Shown in pieces: positions 3,418 through 43,474 of a stretch of 43,998 nucleotides of DNA. This DNA is from Nanobdellati archaeon. Its GTDB lineage: Archaea > B1Sed10-29 > JAGVWA01. A program made the translations under genes and the position numbers. The notes beneath the pieces are model-generated. The model was not told where the DNA came from. It worked only from the letters and a program-made list of their open reading frames with translations, and did not search any database. Positions within the stretch are counted from its first letter, which is position 1; each line of letters begins with the position of its first letter. The stretch is from contig JAGVWA010000006.1 of the NCBI GenBank assembly GCA_018304505.1, positions 1 through 43,998 on the forward strand, in the 5' to 3' direction.

Positions 3418-4119
3418 ATGAAAAAATACTTTATGCCAGATCTTAATAAACACTTGACAGAAGAGGAGTTAAAAGGTCATTATAACACATCCTTTGATCA
3501 GTTACTTGCACTTTCAAAACAGACGTTGATTAACAAGCGGCGTCAGGAATTTCTTTTAAGAGAGGATATTTTCTCAGGAAGAAAAAAGATCTTGGACGTT
3601 GGTTGCTACATAGGATTGATTTCTAGGTTCATAGCTGAAAAATACCCTCGGAGTGAGGTTGTTGGAATTGATGTTGTCAAAGAGTTTATAGAGGCTGCAA
3701 ATGTGCTGTCGAAATCTCCAAATACTTCGTTTATTCATGGGAACATCCTAACAGCAAAGATCAAGGAGAAGTTTGACGTCATTATCTTTTTAGAAACGAT
3801 AGAGCATGTTGATAACCCTATTGGGATGATCAGGCATTTTCATAAGCTGTTGAACAAAGGGGGCACATTGATTATTTCAACACCCGACTGCACAGGCATT
3901 ACTAACGTACTTAGGAACATAAAACACAAATCCCTAGAGTTCATAAAACATGAAAAACAAAACTCTGGAACAGAAGCAGACCACTTGTATTGCTGGGACA
4001 AGATAACACTAACAAGGTTGCTTAATCGGAATGGTTTTGAATTAGTCGACTTTTTTGTGAGTCAAAAATACAATCCGTGTGTATATCAGAGTTTGGTCAT
4101 GGTTTCTAAAAAGAGATAA
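3418..4119 (+). CDS. Class I SAM-dependent methyltransferase
   Basis: ILDVGCYIG, GID, FDVIIFLETIEHV, L..GG.LIISTP. AGGTGA SD before the ATG. Confidence 0.9.
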   Translation: MKKYFMPDLNKHLTEEELKGHYNTSFDQLLALSKQTLINKRRQEFLLREDIFSGRKKILDVGCYIGLISRFIAEKYPRSEVVGIDVVKEFIEAANVLSKSPNTSFIHGNILTAKIKEKFDVIIFLETIEHVDNPIGMIRHFHKLLNKGGTLIISTPDCTGITNVLRNIKHKSLEFIKHEKQNSGTEADHLYCWDKITLTRLLNRNGFELVDFFVSQKYNPCVYQSLVMVSKKR

Positions 4120-4126
4120 GCAAAAA

Positions 4127-4975
4127 TTAGGGGGTGTTATATTTGCCAGCTAATTTTTTTACGGTATCGAGCATTGTTAGGGTTTTGATGCCCTTATCAT
4201 TGATGATCTCGAAAATCTTTCCCAACCTATTGCTTATTATGTCTAAAGGGTCAACATAGATATTTAAAATTTGTTTGCGTTCAAGTGACATGTCGATCAG
4301 CTTAGCGAAGATGTCAAAGAATTCACTTTTTGAGTGCTTTGTTGTTGGAGATCTGAATGAGTGAAAAGTATCAAATGGGGAATAAAAGTGCTTAGGGCAG
4401 GAAGTTACTGGAAACTCATATAAGTTTTTCCTTACTTTAAATGGCGCTATATGTCCTGAAACTGAAGAAGTTGTTGAAGATGAGTACAACATTTTTTCTT
4501 TCTCGAGAATATCATAAACGCTAACTTCAAACTCTGACCCAAAGTGAGGAAACCTAAATCCTAGCGGCTTGGTTTTAAGGAGCTTGTTGCAGATAGTATT
4601 ACACTTGGATATCTCATTTTCTTTTTCTTTGGTTGTCAGGGAACGATATTTCGGTGTTTTTAATTCATCATTATACGGGTGAGAGTAGGTGTGATTTACT
4701 ATCTCATGTTTCCGTCGTACGATCTCCTTGTGGATTTCAGGAAACTCCTCGACATACATCCCGACAACTGCAAAACTGGCCTTGATGCTATGCGTTTTCA
4801 TTATATCAATCAGCAAAGGGATTGATTCAACATCCTTTTTATAGTCCATATCGTAAGATATTGAAATGGTTCCTATTTGCCCATTGTGAGCGTATAAATT
4901 GTTGAATATCTGCTTGCCGTAGAGCTTGTTAGTTATTCGCTTTAGTACAAAATTTGTTTTCCAATATTGATGCAT
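4127..4975 (-). CDS. Polysaccharide deacetylase (CE4/NodB-like)
   Basis: SISYDMD, ASFAVVG, HEIVNHTYSHP, GFRFP. Start moved to ATG 4975 after GAGGGACGTGAT to avoid overlap with the divergent gene. Confidence 0.85.
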   Translation of the reverse strand: MHQYWKTNFVLKRITNKLYGKQIFNNLYAHNGQIGTISISYDMDYKKDVESIPLLIDIMKTHSIKASFAVVGMYVEEFPEIHKEIVRRKHEIVNHTYSHPYNDELKTPKYRSLTTKEKENEISKCNTICNKLLKTKPLGFRFPHFGSEFEVSVYDILEKEKMLYSSSTTSSVSGHIAPFKVRKNLYEFPVTSCPKHFYSPFDTFHSFRSPTTKHSKSEFFDIFAKLIDMSLERKQILNIYVDPLDIISNRLGKIFEIINDKGIKTLTMLDTVKKLAGKYNTP

Positions 4976-23038: not shown

Positions 23039-23146
23039 GGGCCCGTGGCTTAGCCTGGCAGAGCGCCGGTCTTATATGACACGTTCTGGTATATCCAGTT
23101 GTCTTGAGACAACCGGAGGTCCTTGGTTCGAATCCGAGCGGGCCCA
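23039..23146 (+). tRNA. tRNA-Ile(UAU) with a 34-nt canonical 37/38 intron (23077-23110)
   Basis: Acceptor stem GGGCCCG/CGGGCCC+A, D arm GCTT/GAGC, anticodon stem CCGGT/ACCGG with CT-TAT-A (TAT at 23073-23075), variable loop AGGTC, T arm CTTGG-TTCGAAT-CCGAG. The intron forms a BHB-like motif (CTTA/TGAG). TATA-like TTTTTAT about 30 nt upstream. Confidence 0.93.
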
Positions 23147-25626: not shown

Positions 25627-26348
25627 TTACTCGGCCGGATAATGGTTTTTATAATTGACAGGATGATGATGAAAAACAGCAGGCTGATCGCTAATTCGTT
25701 GGCGGGGATGGCGCTCCTTTCCTGTTTTTCTTGGATGACGATGCCTGTTTTCAAGGCCGCGTCGAGTTCTTCTCGGTCGTTGCAGTACATCAAAACGTGC
25801 CCCCCGCGCACGGTTAGTGCGAGCCGTTGAACTATGGTGTTGTTTTGTAATTCTGTTGTTAGGTTGAATTCCATGGTGTCTTTTTGTCGGGAAATGTTTT
25901 CAGCGTATTTTGTGATGCCATAATTTCCGGGAATGAGGGTTGTGACAATGAATTCTTGATTTATGGGCGGCAAGAACAGGATTTCTTTTTTCGCGCAGAT
26001 AGTGTCAATGAAGCCCCGGCCGCCTAATTTGTATTCCCCGTTTCCGAGATTTGTTATGTAGTTGTTGTATTCCCCATAGAGCGTTACTTCAACAGTTTCG
26101 TTGCTGGTGTTTGATTTCCATTCGAGTATTGAGATGTCCTGGTATTTGTTCTGTAAAAACTCATAGGTGTTGTTGATGTTGAAGTTTTTGTTCATCGCCA
26201 TAGCGTGATTTCCATAGTAATATTCAGTCAGGGCGATCTGGTCTGTAAGGTTTTCCAGTATATTGTGGGTTGATGTTATTAACAGATCAGATTGTGCCGC
26301 AGTCGCTATTCCGAAGAGCAGAACAAAAACTATCAGGGTTTTGATCAT
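25623..26348 (-). CDS. Hypothetical exported protein with C-terminal TM anchor
   Basis: N-terminal signal peptide, several N-x-S/T sequons, C-terminal hydrophobic helix with a basic tail. 4-nt start/stop overlaps with both neighbours. Confidence 0.7.
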   Translation of the reverse strand: MIKTLIVFVLLFGIATAAQSDLLITSTHNILENLTDQIALTEYYYGNHAMAMNKNFNINNTYEFLQNKYQDISILEWKSNTSNETVEVTLYGEYNNYITNLGNGEYKLGGRGFIDTICAKKEILFLPPINQEFIVTTLIPGNYGITKYAENISRQKDTMEFNLTTELQNNTIVQRLALTVRGGHVLMYCNDREELDAALKTGIVIQEKQERSAIPANELAISLLFFIIILSIIKTIIRPSK

Positions 26349-27217
26349 TTTATCAGTTCTTTTATCTCGTTTTCAAGTTCCTTTGAGAGTTTGTCTGCGT
26401 AGAAAGCCCCCTTGAAGTAATCAACCTTTGCTGCTATACTGATTTTTGACGAGAGCTTTCGCGCGATTTTTCCGCGCACGTTCTTGTTTGCGCCCCTGAG
26501 TTTCGGAAATCCAAAGATGACGCCGTGCTTCGGGCTCGGCGTGCCCTGTCGAATGTGCGCAAATAGAGCCTTTTCTGCACCTAGCACCTGGATCGTGGAA
26601 CTCGGGAATTCTGAAAGTTTCTCTAGGCTTCCCGCTATTGAAATTAGCCTGGCTGCTATCGGAGCGCCTATTAGGTGCGTGATGTTTGGTGCTTCTTCTT
26701 TCATTACCGTTTCTAGATATTCGAGGGTGCGCGTTCTTTGTTCTCTTAGTGAAATAATAGATTCAGCATACATGACAATTTGGTCCAAGTCTGTGTCTTT
26801 AAGTGTGCCGCCCATTGTCTCTCTGCAGGCTTTTTCAATCTTGTCTGCATACCCTTTGTTTCCCACTACCTGCTCAATCTTTTCTTTAGTAAAATTCGCC
26901 TTCGATTTTAGTTTCGTTATTAGTACAAGGTACTCGTCTGCGTCTTCTACATGCCGGGATAGTTCTGGAAAGTAGTTTGCATACCACTCTCGTAGTTGTT
27001 CGGTTAGCAAATTAGAAGTCTTGTCTATCAAGTCTATTGATTTGACTGTCTGCACGATGGTCTTGTCGCGCTGCTCGAGCTTTTTTTGTATGCGCTCTTT
27101 TGTTTTTTTGAATGCTCGTTCTCTAAGCGAGTCTACTGATTTTTGCCTTGCCGGCTTGCCAGCCGAGAAGGGCTGCCTTTTATAGGTTTCCCTGTTCTTC
27201 CTAGGTTTTCCTTTCAT
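26345..27217 (-). CDS. nop5: Nop5 (Nop56/58 homolog), box C/D sRNP core protein
   Basis: LREWY..YFPEL, APN...G..IAARL, P.STIQVLGAEKALF, SPKHGVIF, RGKIAR. GGTGA SD upstream. Confidence 0.95.
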   Translation of the reverse strand: MKGKPRKNRETYKRQPFSAGKPARQKSVDSLRERAFKKTKERIQKKLEQRDKTIVQTVKSIDLIDKTSNLLTEQLREWYANYFPELSRHVEDADEYLVLITKLKSKANFTKEKIEQVVGNKGYADKIEKACRETMGGTLKDTDLDQIVMYAESIISLREQRTRTLEYLETVMKEEAPNITHLIGAPIAARLISIAGSLEKLSEFPSSTIQVLGAEKALFAHIRQGTPSPKHGVIFGFPKLRGANKNVRGKIARKLSSKISIAAKVDYFKGAFYADKLSKELENEIKELIK

Positions 27218-28006: not shown

Positions 28007-29332
28007 TCACGCTCCTACTCCTCTTGCTTGCGGTTTGGCGCCTGTTGTCAAGGCAGGCCTTTGCGCATTTTTATCTCCACTAGGTATTGCCCGTGCAGAT
28101 ATTGTCCTGAGGGTTTCTCTCGCAGCCACGGCTTTTTCTTTCCTCTCCTCAAGCCTTTTCTTATCGAAGTCTGTCACGGATCTTCGCACGACTGATGCAG
28201 CTGTTCTTACAACTTCGCGCCTCTGTGATTTCTCGATTACCCTGTTCTGGCGTGCCAGCTCGCGTATTTGGTTGAAGTTTTCCCTGACTGCATTGACGTG
28301 CCTTGCAGAATCGTTGAAAGCCCTTAGTAATTGCCTTTGCGGGGTGTCACTATCTAACGCGTTCAGGGCATTTATTTCCGACTCTTCAAAGTCTTGCAGT
28401 TGTGCTTCAAGGGTGTCGATTCTCTGTCCACGGTTATGCAGCCTGTTGATTTTTTCTTCAAGAATGCATTTTCGGTGTTCGAAAATGAGTTCGAGTTTTT
28501 CCTTGGCCGCGGTTTTGGCTTCATCTCTGGTGTCCTTCAGTTCTTCGCGTTTGGCCTCCCGGATTTCTCGCAATGCGTTTCGCACTTCTTGGATCTTTTC
28601 CGGTGCAGTCAGTACATCGAGTTGCCTTGCTGCATCCCTGAAGTTCATCATTGCGGTTTTTACAGCATCTGAAATACCATCGTACTCTTGTTTTGATTCA
28701 GCAGTCTGGTTCAGGGCTTCACGTGCGCTTCGGACCTCTTCTAGGTACTGCGTTAGGTTTGCCAGCTCTTCATCCGATGCGCCGGATTCGCGCGCTATCT
28801 CGAGTACTTTTTCCATTTCAGCTATCTTAATTTCAACGTGGTACTTGTCCTGTAGATGCCGAACTTGGTTGCGCCTGTTCTCGCCGATTTCCTTGGCGAT
28901 TTCAGAGACTGACTTTCCGAGTCTGGTTTCGCAGATGTTTGTCGGCTTTTTCTCGATTTCGATTACTGACCCTTCTGCTGTCTCGATAATTTCTATGTCG
29001 TCTGCGGTTTCAGAAACTTCCTCTGATTCTGTTTCGTTTGTAGTGTCCGATGTGGTTTGGTTTTCTTCCATGCTTGTGTCATCTGATGTTGTGTCACCTG
29101 ATGTTGTGTCGTTTGACGTTGTTGCGTCATCTGATGTTGTGTCGTTTGATGTTGTTGCGTCATCTGATGTTGTGTCGTTTGACGTTGTGGTGTCATCTGA
29201 TGTTGTGTCGTTTGACGTTGTGGTGTCATCTGATGTTGCTGTGTCATTCGACGTTATTGTGTCGTTGCTTTGCGAGATTGCGCTGCTTGTTAATAGTAAT
29301 ATGAGTAATAGCGCAATCAACAGTTTTCTCAT
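28007..29332 (-). CDS. Secreted surface protein with an Asn/Asp/Thr repeat stalk and long coiled-coil/helical region
   Basis: Signal peptide MRKLLIALLLILLL, TTSNDTTSDD repeats, charged heptad-rich C-terminal two-thirds. GGAGGG SD. Confidence 0.8.
   Translation of the reverse strand: MRKLLIALLLILLLTSSAISQSNDTITSNDTATSDDTTTSNDTTSDDTTTSNDTTSDDATTSNDTTSDDATTSNDTTSGDTTSDDTSMEENQTTSDTTNETESEEVSETADDIEIIETAEGSVIEIEKKPTNICETRLGKSVSEIAKEIGENRRNQVRHLQDKYHVEIKIAEMEKVLEIARESGASDEELANLTQYLEEVRSAREALNQTAESKQEYDGISDAVKTAMMNFRDAARQLDVLTAPEKIQEVRNALREIREAKREELKDTRDEAKTAAKEKLELIFEHRKCILEEKINRLHNRGQRIDTLEAQLQDFEESEINALNALDSDTPQRQLLRAFNDSARHVNAVRENFNQIRELARQNRVIEKSQRREVVRTAASVVRRSVTDFDKKRLEERKEKAVAARETLRTISARAIPSGDKNAQRPALTTGAKPQARGVGA
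29076..29266. repeat. Intragenic imperfect 33-bp tandem repeat (about 4 full units plus shorter sub-units)
   Basis: Unit GTCATCTGATGTTGTGTCGTTTGACGTTGT(G/T)G(T/C) on the plus strand, encoding (T/A)TTSNDTTSDD on the minus strand. Confidence 0.85.
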
Positions 29333-29407
29333 TGCATCCCTCCAGTTGGTTCATATAAGTTCATATAATACGCTTTTGTTGTTTTAGTATAAAAAGGGGC
29401 CTGTAAA

Positions 29408-29447
29408 AAATGACCCATATAAAAATAAATGACCCATATAAAAATAA
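29408..29447. repeat. Perfect 19-bp direct tandem repeat x2 containing TATA-like sequence
   Basis: AAATGACCCATATAAAAAT at 29408-29426 and 29427-29445. Confidence 0.85.
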
Positions 29448-29458
29448 GTAAAATCGGC

Positions 29459-29593
29459 ATAGGTTGCCCGAAAGGGTTTTACATCTGAGCACGGGTGAGT
29501 AGGAGTTTCTCCTAAGTTCTTCTTACTCCGCCTAGGTTCGCGAGGAGACCAATCCGGAAACCCACAATGCTCTGAAAATGGCTGATGGTCTAT
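29459..29593. ncRNA. Candidate structured non-coding RNA of unknown class
   Basis: GC-richer, non-coding island between AT-rich flanks, with nested helices, a GAAA tetraloop hairpin and a possible kink-turn. TATA-like and T-tract signals occur on both sides, so the strand is unresolved. Confidence 0.5.
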
Positions 29594-29655
29594 CTTTGCG
29601 AAGTCGGGGTTTATAAGACTTGCCTGTAAATTTCTTTTTGCTTTTTCTTGTTTTT

Positions 29656-30075
29656 TTACATTTTTATTAGTCCGTCTTGCGATTCCCAGTACTCTTCCGG
29701 CGCGTCCTTGAATTGTTTGTACAGTTTATTGACAGAGTGGTGGCCAACGCGCTCCTTACCGAAGACGACGTGGGGCACTAGAGCGCCGCTAAAATTTTTG
29801 GAGATATGCAGCAATTCATGAATGATGGTTTTTTCTTTCTCGTGCCCTGGCAGATTGTCGAATCTTTCAGAGCAAACCTCGATTACGTAGTGCGGTTCTA
29901 AGCCAAGGGCTTTTTGCCATATCCGTGGGAACTCCCAGGTCCGGGCTATGGCGTTCGATTTCGTGTTGAATGTCCTAACGAACTTCACGCGTCTTGAGTC
30001 GATGTGATCGAGGTCAAGCTTGCGGATTATCTCCTCGGCAATGAGCTTTATATCGGGCGCAAAATCGATTTTCAT
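29656..30075 (-). CDS. Putative zincin metallopeptidase (small 'phage metallopeptidase'-like family)
   Basis: A.AR.W..P..WQ.AL...P.YVIE, F..L, IIHELLHI (HExxH). Overlaps the upstream stop by 4 nt. Confidence 0.8.
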   Translation of the reverse strand: MKIDFAPDIKLIAEEIIRKLDLDHIDSRRVKFVRTFNTKSNAIARTWEFPRIWQKALGLEPHYVIEVCSERFDNLPGHEKEKTIIHELLHISKNFSGALVPHVVFGKERVGHHSVNKLYKQFKDAPEEYWESQDGLIKM

Positions 30076-31133
30076 TCAAGTAGCTCCTTCATCCTGACGT
30101 ACTTGTCAATGTCTTCCTGGTAAACGACGCCAACAAGTTTCTTGCCATGCATCACTGGCAGTACAGCAGTGTTCTGGTTTGCCATGGTTTCCATGACGCG
30201 GTTTAAGTCAGTCGTGCTGCTTACTGGCGCTATAGGTTTTGAAACATCATTTACGTGCATCGTTTTTTGGTCTTTTTTACGCAGTTGGTAGATATCGCGT
30301 AGTGAGACCGTTCGCATTTTATCTGTGATAAAGCTCGTGCGCCTCTTCTTAAGCATCAAGTTGATTACCGCTTGCAGGCCATGACTTTCCTTTACAACCG
30401 TCGGTTTCAGTTCTATTATGTCGAGCAGCTTGGCCCGTGACAGGGCGTCTGTAACCAAAAGCCCCTGGTATTCCGCAGACGCGCCGAAGATTATGAATAA
30501 GGAAATGAGCATGATCCAGACGTCAAATCGAAGCAAGGCCCACAAGAACAGGCCAATGGAAATCATGATGCTGACGTTCTTTGCAACCTCTGTTGCCCGT
30601 TTATAGTCAAGCTTATACGCGAGCAGTGCCCTGAAAATGCGTCCCCCGTCTAGCGGAAATGCAGGCAAGAGCAAATTGAAGCTGCCGAGAATAAGGTTTG
30701 AGTATAGCGAATAAAATATGAACAGCTCGAAAACCGACAATGATGAAATGCCCCCATGCACAAAGGCGCTCAGCCATTCATTTAGCGGCCAATTGAAAAG
30801 CACTGACAATCCTAGTAGTATGTACACCATGACGAAGTTGAACAACGGACCGGCAATGCTGACCTTTAGCTCCGTATATGGAGATATGTCCTTTGTGTCG
30901 ATCATGGACATGCCGCCTATTGGAAGCAGGGTAATGGATTTCACGTTGATTTTGTTCTTCAGCGCAACGTAGCTGTGGCTCAGTTCGTGCAAGGTGACGT
31001 AGATAAACACCAGAAGAATAAGGAACGCGAATGACACGTTCAGGACCAGTAGGAGAAGGATAAATAACAAAAACGAGATGTGCAGCTCGATGTCAATGTC
31101 AAAGACTGATAAGATTTTATAGGACCATGCCAT
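30072..31133 (-). CDS. Site-2 protease (M50) with C-terminal CBS domains
   Basis: LHELSH, LLPIGG, AGPLFN, FNLLLPAFPLDGGR, and a CBS-like C-terminus (LPV...KLVGVV). Start set at ATG 31133. Confidence 0.92.
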   Translation of the reverse strand: MAWSYKILSVFDIDIELHISFLLFILLLLVLNVSFAFLILLVFIYVTLHELSHSYVALKNKINVKSITLLPIGGMSMIDTKDISPYTELKVSIAGPLFNFVMVYILLGLSVLFNWPLNEWLSAFVHGGISSLSVFELFIFYSLYSNLILGSFNLLLPAFPLDGGRIFRALLAYKLDYKRATEVAKNVSIMISIGLFLWALLRFDVWIMLISLFIIFGASAEYQGLLVTDALSRAKLLDIIELKPTVVKESHGLQAVINLMLKKRRTSFITDKMRTVSLRDIYQLRKKDQKTMHVNDVSKPIAPVSSTTDLNRVMETMANQNTAVLPVMHGKKLVGVVYQEDIDKYVRMKELLE

Positions 31134-31143
31134 AGGTATCAAC

Positions 31144-31317
31144 ATGCCAAATGGAATCTGCGATATATGTAGTATGCCCCAGAGGCATTTAAACGTATGC
31201 CAGCGATGCGGCGCGAGGGTATGTGATATGCATTATGTGCCATTGAACGCGTTATGCTCGAACTGCGCTGCGCAGCTAGGCACTTTTCAGGAGAAGGGAA
31301 AATGGCTCAAGAAGTAG
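31144..31317 (+). CDS. Small zinc-finger protein (57 aa), not in the ORF track
   Basis: MPNGICDICSMPQRHLNVCQRCGARVCDMHYVPLNALCSNCAAQLGTFQEKGKWLKK*: CxxC-CxxC-CxxH-CxxC. Overlaps the RNA ligase start. TTTTATA about 25 nt upstream. Confidence 0.82.
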   Translation: MPNGICDICSMPQRHLNVCQRCGARVCDMHYVPLNALCSNCAAQLGTFQEKGKWLKK

Positions 31318-32417
31318 CAGCGGCAAAGGCCCTCGGAATTGAGGTACCGCAATTTGCACACCACTTAAGCAGTGGGCACATCCAGTTCATCAATGATCAC
31401 TTTCGCTTCCAGAAAGAGCTACTGGGCATCGATAAGGGCACGTTGTATTTTCCACAAACAAATGAGGTGGTTTTTGGGTTCCCGAAAATTAGGCGAATAC
31501 TCGCCATGCGAAACCTCGGGATGCATTTTAAAAAGCCATTTTACGTAGAGGAAAAATTGGATGGCTACAACGTCCGGCTTTGCAAGGTCAATAATGAGGT
31601 ACTTGCCTTTACGCGCGGCGGCATTAAGGACAAGTACACGGCACAGCGCATTTTGCAGCACATGACTGGTGATTTCTTTGACAAGCATCCGCAGTATGTC
31701 CTCTGCGGCGAAGTCATCGGATTACAGAACCCTTATCAGGAAAAGGGGTATCCAGAGGAGAGGGACTTCGGGTTCTACGTTTTCGACGTGCGCGAAAAAA
31801 ACACAAACAAGCCAGTTAGTGCCGAAAAACGCTATGCTCTAATGAAACGGTTCAAGATTAATCAGGTAAGGTCATTTGGCCTTTACAAGGCAACAGACTG
31901 GCAGGCGTTGCTTAAGCTAACGCGAAAATTAGGCGACCAAGGTCGCGAGGGCATTGTAATGAAAAGTCACGACATTGGGATGCAGCTGAAGTACACATCA
32001 AATCAGTCGACAAGCAAGGACCTGGAGTACGCGTTCACGTTCCCATTTGACTACGGGCAGGCGTTTTTTTTCAGACGTTTGATAAGGCAGGGCTTCCAGG
32101 CCTCTGAGCTGAACCTAACGAAAAAGCAGCTTGACCATGAGGCTGCGCGTATTGGCAAGGCAATTCTGTTTCCGATGGTGCATACCATAAATGAGCTGAA
32201 GAAAGGAAATGAAGTGACAGAAGATTTTGAAATCGAAGTGCCTGACGAGCAATTTGGACGCGAATTTATTGAACACCTGAAAAAAATGGGTTTGGTGCTT
32301 TCTGTCAGGGGCCTGAAAAAAGGCAGGGCGTCTTGCAAATTCAGGATATCACGGCACTATCAGGCTACAAACGATAAAACAAAGGCATACCTACAAGGAT
32401 CACTGTCATCAGATTAA
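31302..32417 (+). CDS. ATP-dependent RNA ligase, archaeal Rnl3/Pab1020 family
   Basis: FPKIRR, EEKLDGYN (motif I), TRGG, GEVIG..NPY, FYVFD, REGIVMK, KYT, and C-terminal F...R..R..FQ. Confidence 0.9.
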   Translation: MAQEVAAAKALGIEVPQFAHHLSSGHIQFINDHFRFQKELLGIDKGTLYFPQTNEVVFGFPKIRRILAMRNLGMHFKKPFYVEEKLDGYNVRLCKVNNEVLAFTRGGIKDKYTAQRILQHMTGDFFDKHPQYVLCGEVIGLQNPYQEKGYPEERDFGFYVFDVREKNTNKPVSAEKRYALMKRFKINQVRSFGLYKATDWQALLKLTRKLGDQGREGIVMKSHDIGMQLKYTSNQSTSKDLEYAFTFPFDYGQAFFFRRLIRQGFQASELNLTKKQLDHEAARIGKAILFPMVHTINELKKGNEVTEDFEIEVPDEQFGREFIEHLKKMGLVLSVRGLKKGRASCKFRISRHYQATNDKTKAYLQGSLSSD

Positions 32418-43364: not shown

Positions 43365-43474
43365 GGGCTGCTAGCTTAGCCAGGATGGAGCACCCGACTG
43401 ATAATCGGGAACTCCTTAAGAAATTATTTCTTGGGAGTCGGGAAAGGTCGAGGGTTCAAATCCCTTGCGGCCCA
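43365..43474 (+). tRNA. tRNA-Ile(GAU) with a 35-nt non-canonical intron at 43/44 (43410-43444)
   Basis: Acceptor stem GGGCTGC/GCGGCCC+A, D arm GCTT/GAGC, anticodon arm CCCGA-CTGATAA-TCGGG (GAT at 43400-43402), hairpin insert, then AGGTC and T arm GAGGG-TTCAAAT-CCCTT. TTTTAAA promoter upstream and T-tract downstream. Confidence 0.88.

Follow-up and report, generated by a model that had tools for sequence, protein, structure and literature searches.

A candidate structured RNA with a predicted three-way junction in one order of DPANN archaea

Does the intergenic gap between the gene of a secreted repeat protein and that of a metallopeptidase in this genome encode a structured RNA and, if it does, which part of the gap is the RNA, on which strand does it lie and to what kind of RNA does it belong? 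The genomes of DPANN archaea are very small and contain little non-coding DNA, and to our knowledge almost nothing is known about their small RNAs. The genome studied here (917 kb in 21 contigs, 92.8% complete) carries the gap on contig C20, which is the window of our analysis, that is, the whole stretch of 43,998 nt. An earlier note, made from the letters of this stretch alone, had proposed that about 135 nt of the gap form an unclassified structured RNA, perhaps a new archaeal class bound by L7Ae and circularised by an Rnl3-type ligase encoded nearby. Our comparison with related genomes suggests a narrower finding, namely a new lineage-restricted structured RNA candidate with three members, whose inner part (29491-29566) is conserved and probably folds as a three-way junction. 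This inner part is upheld because it has homologs in two related genomes, G002 and G004, rather than by the folding of a single sequence.

The locus and its single-sequence features

The gap is 320 nt long and is flanked by two minus-strand protein genes (Table 1). The landmarks that the earlier note had placed around it, a C/D sRNP gene and an Rnl3 ligase, were correct, as the Pfam matches to Nop5 (PF01798) and to the ligase (PF09414 + PF18330) indicate. No frame of at least 40 aa in the ORF list spans the core in this genome, and there is no other plus-strand gene upstream between 26345 and 29460. The 441-aa protein on one flank has a signal peptide, long repeats rich in Thr, Ser and Asp, and a charged, coiled-coil-like tail. 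A 450-aa frame at 28035-29387 on the plus strand is kept open by the repeats of this opposite-strand gene and is probably an artefact. Both promoter regions of the gap hold small duplications: the 19-nt repeat listed in Table 1 and, before the 441-aa gene, an exactly tandem-duplicated 10-nt unit with TATA-like letters at 29349-29368.

Table 1. Positions in the window of the features discussed in the text
Feature	Position	Strand	Remark
Nop5 gene	26345-27217		PF01798
441-aa secreted repeat protein gene	28007-29332	minus	one flank of the gap; no Pfam match
Tandem 19-nt direct repeat, one TATA-like box per copy (second box ~29435-29444)	29405-29442	plus	2 copies, 95%; candidate promoter
T-runs after the core in minus sense	~29440-29452	minus
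Closing helix ATAGGTT / GGTCTAT	29459-65 / 29587-93	plus	present as quoted
5' hairpin with GAAA loop	29466-29477	plus	read from the sequence; specific to this genome
K-turn-like motif, non-bulged strand	29482-29491	plus	partner 29568-29580
GAGCA / TGCTC	29487-91 / 29568-72	plus	present as quoted
Conserved core, predicted three-way junction	29491-29566	plus	R1 and R2 matches and manual structural alignment
GGGT / ACCC	29493-96 / 29560-63	plus	present as quoted
P2	29493-95 / 29561-63	plus	predicted closing helix; 5-6 bp in G002 and G004
P3	29496-99 / 29522-25	plus	predicted; closes the variable hairpin 29500-05 / 29509-14
Short hairpin	29500-14	plus	'alternative' hairpin of the earlier note; present as quoted
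3'-side bulges, one per arm	29515-21 and 29546-54	plus
P4	29527-30 / 29555-58	plus	predicted, manual alignment
P5	29531-35 / 29541-45	plus	predicted; a rival drawing has different partners in each genome
K-turn-like motif, bulged strand	29568-29580	plus	or else belongs to a weak hairpin just 3' of P2
3' arm of closing helix (29587-93) with T3 + GCG (29594-99)	29587-29599	plus	possible plus-strand stop, by inference
BRE/TATA-like element pointing into the core	29609-29619	minus	like the promoter of the 43365 tRNA gene; G002 has a similar promoter-like element
T-rich run (T5, T5, T7)	29631-29658	plus	alternative terminator for a longer RNA of ~175-190 nt
PF18894 metallopeptidase gene	29656-30075	minus	other flank of the gap
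Rnl3-type ligase gene	31254-32417		PF09414 + PF18330

All the strings quoted for the proposed RNA are present where they were placed, and the outer features of that proposal are at chance level. On the plus strand the minimum free energy (MFE) of the 146-nt stretch, -40.9 kcal/mol, was practically equal to the mean of the shuffles (-40.87; z -0.01), and 94 of 200 shuffles folded as well; the z for the minus strand was +0.29. Among 2000 dinucleotide shuffles, 410 contained a closing helix of 7 bp or more when G-U pairs were allowed, and the helix, which has no counterpart at the homologous positions in G002 and G004, is not supported. The 5' hairpin with its GAAA loop is specific to this genome, neither homolog having a counterpart 5' of the core. 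The nested helices divided. The short hairpin and the GGG/CCC pairing (29493-95 / 29561-63) are backed by the homologs, and the long GAGTAGGAG/TTCTTACTC helix is not.

Homologs and the predicted fold

When the 171-nt locus 29440-29610 was compared with 40 relatives by BLAST, a single match exceeded chance, in G002 (80% identity over 45 nt, E 3.3e-5). From these two cores we built a covariance model (R1), which located a third copy in G004 (E 3.6e-6), with scores of 92.1 bits in this genome, 105.1 in G002 and 36 in G004. The model built from all three cores (R2) scored 86.8, 85.7 and 77.3 bits in the same order, with a single strong copy per genome, and nothing else exceeded 20 bits among the 31 genomes of the phylum. 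The element is present in three of the 18 genomes of the order and three of the 31 of the phylum, and its carriers belong to three different families. When the model search was extended to 151 relatives across Archaea, the next matches reached at most 26 bits and none was credible. The label 'new archaeal sRNA class' is too wide because the element was found in only three genomes of one DPANN order.

The weak matches from these searches were all rejected. The match in G061 lies inside a frame resembling an alanyl-tRNA-synthetase motif and the one in G010 within a 943-aa ORF; those in G146, G133 and G016 were rejected as coding-looking by reading alone, and those in G138 (22.7 bits) and G134 (18.8 bits) were set aside by score alone, against 77-87 bits for the three members. 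A syntenic scan in other genomes of the order with the filters off covered 13 stretches upstream of Nop5 and 7 around the metallopeptidase/Rnl3 block, and nothing in them exceeded 13.6 bits. A pattern scan of a species-genome collection returned 43 stretches, of which about 39 would be expected by chance according to our own estimate. One was real, a 'Candidatus Micrarchaeota' MAG contig that coincides with the G002 locus (G002:C27). Among three stretches from the JGI metagenomes, one is a twin of the G004 locus and the other two lie in coding DNA and had no model score; both matches in viral contigs were chance. Partial model matches also brought to light a stretch of G006:C5 in which an 18-nt hairpin with a 5-bp stem and a loop of 5 nt recurs, with three copies inside 600 nt, at 3783-3800, 3937-3954 and 4340-4357.

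The genomes that share the element are considerably diverged. Nop5 of this genome is 51% identical to that of G002 and 47-62% (in two pieces) to that of G004, the range within the order being 42-62%. A 20-kb DNA comparison of the window with G002 and G004 yielded 15 matches at E<=0.01, which were placed in the tRNA at 23039, parts of Nop5, the metallopeptidase gene, an Rnl3 fragment and this element, with a few further short matches unmapped. Within the element, the three genomes share three blocks (8, about 15 and about 11 nt) that vary little or not at all, in constant order and with nearly constant spacing. The segment between the first two blocks measures 22, 29 and 22 nt and has internal indels, and the hairpin lengths among the genomes differ by 11 and 4 nt. 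A coding element was rejected, since the last conserved block falls in different frames and the substitutions are spread across all codon positions with no third-position bias. One minus-strand frame is open in all three cores. Given the small genomes of DPANN archaea, an element kept nearly unchanged across families whose proteins are about half identical is therefore likely to be useful to its carriers.

The three cores were aligned by hand on the conserved blocks. In this alignment standard pairs occupied 72 of the 80 cells, and 9 of the 30 pairs were compensatory, with both sides changed: seven in the variable hairpin of P3, one in P2 (G-C vs A-U) and one in P4 (U-A vs C-G). The variable hairpin is made of three unrelated sequences with stems of 6, 11 and 7 bp, its arms are swapped between this genome and G004, and it always pairs. 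Compensatory changes in predicted helices, by which a conserved structured RNA can be recognised, are thus found in the manual alignment of the three sequences. The fold z against shuffles in plus sense was -3.84 for G002 and -1.98 for G004. In the predicted fold the strands of the junction are 0, 1 and 2 nt long and the 3'-side bulge of the P4-P5 arm measures 9-11 nt. Around the junction the letters do not vary among the three genomes, and at the helix tips they are free to change.

The covariation needs to be read with care. The compensatory pair in P4 depends on the register, and the MFE fold of G004 shifts P4 by one register and loses it. In the model-fitted alignment A3, the observed covariation was reached by 100 of 500 shuffles and was not significant, because only three sequences were available. 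The rejected weak matches also gave 'compensatory' pairs, so that model-fitted alignments can manufacture them.

Could the same conservation be that of a DNA element, with inverted repeats for a dimeric protein or with promoter and terminator signals of the neighbouring genes? The gap is rich in promoters and terminators, and the variable hairpin is a perfect Watson-Crick inverted repeat without a G-U pair in any genome, as a protein-binding site would have it. This explanation fits poorly with the nested long-range pairs (about 70 nt apart in P2 and about 28 nt in P4), which change compensatorily, and with features expected of RNA, namely the invariant G-U in P3, the GNRA loop and tandem G-A in the G002 hairpin and the strong folding of the G002 locus. 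In addition, three invariant blocks of 8-15 nt in fixed order exceed what protein operators usually need. We regard a DNA-level element as quite improbable, and the structured RNA candidate is considered further below.

The part of the sequence outside the core gave one more similarity between the genomes. A 10-nt identity (17/21 when extended, E 0.05) links 29463-29472 of this genome, in the 5' hairpin, with the hairpin 3' of the core in G002. A circular permutation, which this identity had brought to mind, was dropped, as each of the three genomes has a small hairpin in collinear position directly 3' of P2.

Strand, transcript and proposed function

The earlier note had left the strand open, and it was right to do so: promoter-like boxes and T-runs are found either way. 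We hold the plus strand to be the likelier one, with reasonable but far from complete confidence. The letters and the spacing of the boxes in the duplicated plus-strand repeat match the promoter before the SRP RNA gene of this genome, and by analogy with that promoter a plus transcript would start near 29462-29466. The short T-run with GCG after the core (29594-99) resembles the string after the SRP RNA gene. The predicted RNA would then extend from about 29464 to about 29597, close to the length of about 135 nt first proposed. A start near 29464 would leave most of the closing helix outside the RNA. The likeness to the SRP RNA gene thus consists in the equal type and upstream distance of the TATA box, a short T-run after the structured part and an intergenic position. 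Unlike that gene, the element shows no similarity to the SRP, RNase P or 5S models, is about 130 rather than 274 nt long and occurs in 3 of 31 genomes instead of universally.

The folds also lean towards the plus strand. The plus-strand fold z is lower than that of the minus strand in all three genomes, and in plus sense P3 holds an invariant G-U and the G002 hairpin has a GNRA loop and tandem G-A; the GAAA loop of the 5' hairpin in this genome was likewise counted for the plus strand. The structure-conservation index from alifold (0.79 plus vs 0.84 minus) does not separate the strands.

The signals on the minus strand suggest a different reading, in which a structured 5' leader, riboswitch-like or protein-responsive, would be transcribed from the BRE/TATA at 29609-19 and would control read-through at the T-runs 29440-52 into a gene for a secreted or membrane protein. 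The targets would be the 441-aa gene (29332-28007) here and, in G002, a gene for a 138-aa membrane protein that lies 18-30 nt beyond the element. In each of the three loci a TATA-like box is found 45-75 nt from the core on the minus-sense side, and in G002 a plus-sense promoter was not evident on reading the locus. Here and in G004 there are T-runs beyond the core in minus sense, in G004 a T6/T5 run directly after it, and in two of the three genomes a co-oriented gene is next downstream. Three transitions in this genome leave the extension of P2 paired in minus sense only, the mismatches on the plus strand (29490-92 / 29564-66) becoming three wobble pairs on the minus strand, and the slightly higher alifold index points in the same direction. 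Against the leader, G004 lacks a co-oriented gene, its next gene, pyrG, being convergent, and the two downstream genes that do exist are unrelated and of no common family. On the minus strand P3 acquires an invariant A-C mismatch and the G002 hairpin has pyrimidine mismatches and no GNRA loop, and the fold z is weaker in every genome. A minus-strand leader appears unlikely to us, while it is the alternative that we take most seriously.

A regulatory leader on the plus strand fits the gene order poorly. In plus sense the next gene downstream is convergent in two of the three genomes, and therefore the element is probably not a cis-regulatory leader of that strand; in G002 the 295-aa gene downstream of it has its own TATA. 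We also consider that an antisense guide is unlikely, because most of the conserved letters are engaged in helices and no stretch of the genome's own DNA offered a complementarity better than chance (best match 15 nt, E 0.097).

What kind of RNA, then, might the element be? Our best explanation, to which we give about an even chance, is that selection in one Micrarchaeota-type subgroup of DPANN maintains a small structured RNA with 29491-29566 as its core, an RNA made as an independent plus-strand transcript of about 130 nt and serving with its junction as a binding platform. Its transcription would be driven by the duplicated TATA at 29405-29442 and would stop near 29597. The core may fold into a tight three-way junction, with P2 closing it, P3 carrying the variable hairpin and P4-P5 carrying a 3' bulge. 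Because the junction is invariant and the tips are free, the junction would be the part that is read by a partner, as a specific binding platform. Such a partner would most likely be a protein, in a small RNP, and less likely a small ligand. Neither the neighbouring metallopeptidase (11 of the 18 genomes) nor Rnl3 (16 of 18) tracks the RNA (3 of 18). Several points speak against this explanation: there are three members, the shuffle control of A3 was not significant, P4 depends on the register, the sequence of this genome does not fold better than its shuffles, and the minus strand carries signals of its own.

A bolder form of this proposal, a compact three-way-junction RNA of an undescribed Micrarchaeota-type DPANN class whose invariant junction binds a ligand, catalyses a reaction or forms a peculiar RNP, seems to us rather improbable. 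An RNA of an undescribed class that cleaves itself as a small ribozyme, catalyses some other reaction or binds a ligand is somewhat more doubtful. A ribozyme or ligand-binding RNA would suit the compact junction with invariant sequence near it and free distal helices, the patchy, single-copy occurrence and the lack of a matching Rfam family. It is opposed by junction strands of merely 0-2 nt, by the lack of any match to an Rfam ribozyme or riboswitch model even at E<=10 and by the absence of a consistent gene association. The small RNA with a binding junction, of the more modest kind described above, is compared with known families in what follows.

Known RNA families, neighbouring genes and significance

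That the RNA is unclassified was borne out by Rfam 15, which assigned no family to any of the three loci, either at gathering or at E<=10. At gathering, two tRNAs only were matched in the whole window. At E<=10 with permissive filters, the region 29300-29750 gave two weak miRNA/snoRNA chance matches, both outside the core, the G002 locus gave none and the G004 locus gave four weak chance matches. The statement that the element is not 5S, SRP or RNase P RNA also stands, as the true copies sit elsewhere in the genome and none is at the candidate: 5S (RF00001) at C3:66724-66839 with 67.5 bits, SRP RNA (RF01857) at C3:72138-72411 with 145.3 bits and RNase P RNA (RF00373) at C15:37817-38093 with 90.7 bits. 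A tRNA is not indicated either, since no tRNA model matched 29300-29750 at E<=10 and ARAGORN found none in the window. A 5S-like look of the minus strand was rejected, as no model matched and the homologs do not keep the likeness.

Three-way-junction aptamers and 5S rRNA have a closing helix and two arms, with conservation near the junction and variable distal helices. The element resembles them in all these respects. It differs in that no model of these families matched, the junction strands are 0-2 nt long, no consistent gene lies downstream and the true 5S is elsewhere.

The RNAs bound by L7Ae through a K-turn require a closer comparison, since the earlier note had read such a motif into the outer stem. 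C/D box sRNAs have a C box RUGAUGA near the 5' end, a D box CUGA near the 3' end, a terminal K-turn and guides of 10-12 nt. Here we read a CUGA on the 5' side and a CUGAUGG on the 3' side, that is, in the wrong order and with a C box that departs from the consensus; a CUGA 3' of the core is missing from both G002 and G004, and the CUGA and CUGAUGG have no conserved partners. H/ACA sRNAs have an ACA three nt after the lower stem of a single hairpin with a pocket and a K-turn. The ACA at 29564-66 is GCG in G002 and GUG in G004, and the core is a predicted three-way junction and not one hairpin. The likeness to both families therefore amounts to the K-turn-like motif in the outer stem of this copy and the CUGA / CUGAUGG strings, together with a genome that encodes Nop5. 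The differences are that the motif, the box-like strings and the ACA are not kept in the two homologs and that the core is without a K-turn.

A sequence was counted as K-turn-like if it combined a C stem of 3 bp with a 3-nt bulge, GA on both strands and no fewer than three of four NC pairs. The arrangement in this genome, with its tandem G-A, satisfies the definition. Of 2000 dinucleotide shuffles, 737 held such a motif, as did 1359 of the 6281 stretches of 146 nt taken from the genome, and it is absent from the homologous place in G002 and G004 on either strand. The K-turn and L7Ae reading is consequently not supported, as the motif is at chance and not conserved.

The same proposal had the RNA circularised by the neighbouring Rnl3. 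In all three genomes the ligase lies 1.7-3.3 kb from the element on one contig, and Rnl-type ligases are reported to be linked to circular C/D sRNAs (PMC9014305, PMC3326292), with a lower circularisation of C/D box sRNAs in an Rnl knockout of Thermococcus (PMC9014305). Within the order the ligase is found in 16 of 18 genomes, the metallopeptidase in 11 and the element in 3, and in G005 the block of Rnl3, metallopeptidase and Nop5 persists on one contig without the element. Rnl3 is therefore not specific to the RNA, and its proximity is shared synteny, not a functional link. A scan for bulge-helix-bulge motifs was uninformative, as 90 of 100 shuffles also gave a match. With no conserved C, D or ACA box added to these results, we find a K-turn sRNA that is bound by L7Ae and circularised by Rnl3 extremely improbable.

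The surroundings of the element are shared in part. In this genome and G002 the M50/CBS protease gene stands on one side of it and Nop5 on the other, with the relative orientation preserved. Its immediate neighbours vary: they are pyrG and a PsbP-like gene in G004 and two genes of no assigned family in G002.

In our view the element fits best among the orphan structured-RNA motifs reported in surveys in which intergenic regions were searched for candidate motifs by comparative genomics (PMC2864571, PMC1950547). As with such orphan motifs, it has conserved blocks and compensatory pairing in a few related genomes, a core of about 80 nt, a single copy and no assigned function. It differs from them in being absent from Rfam 15 and in having three members in one DPANN order, with a covariation that is statistically unsupported so far. 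Supplements aside, a literature search found no paper on structured or non-coding RNAs of Micrarchaeota or on DPANN riboswitches. If expression and a partner are shown, the candidate would become a new RNA family for a poorly studied phylum, and it would offer structural work a compact, well-delimited three-way junction.

Some observations on the neighbouring genes are worth recording in their own right. A block of Rnl3, the M50/CBS protease and the PF18894 'phage' metallopeptidase (29656-32417 here) stands on one contig in G001, G005, G006, G008 and G010. The PF18894 metallopeptidase is a conserved chromosomal gene in the 11 of 18 genomes of the order that have it, and it is not a phage marker here. 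Stop codons were seen inside three of the protein matches: one TAG and one TAA in Rnl3 of G004 (G004:C4:49709-50854), one TAG in the metallopeptidase of G005 (G005:C12:6522-6893) and one TGA in Nop5 of G007 (G007:C1:74994-75731). Broken genes, assembly errors or recoding may be responsible. Finally, the two tRNA genes of the window, both on the plus strand at 23039-23146 (54.6 bits) and 43365-43474 (50.8 bits), were matched by Rfam and missed by ARAGORN; they are 108 and 110 nt long, and introns of about 35 nt are therefore implied.
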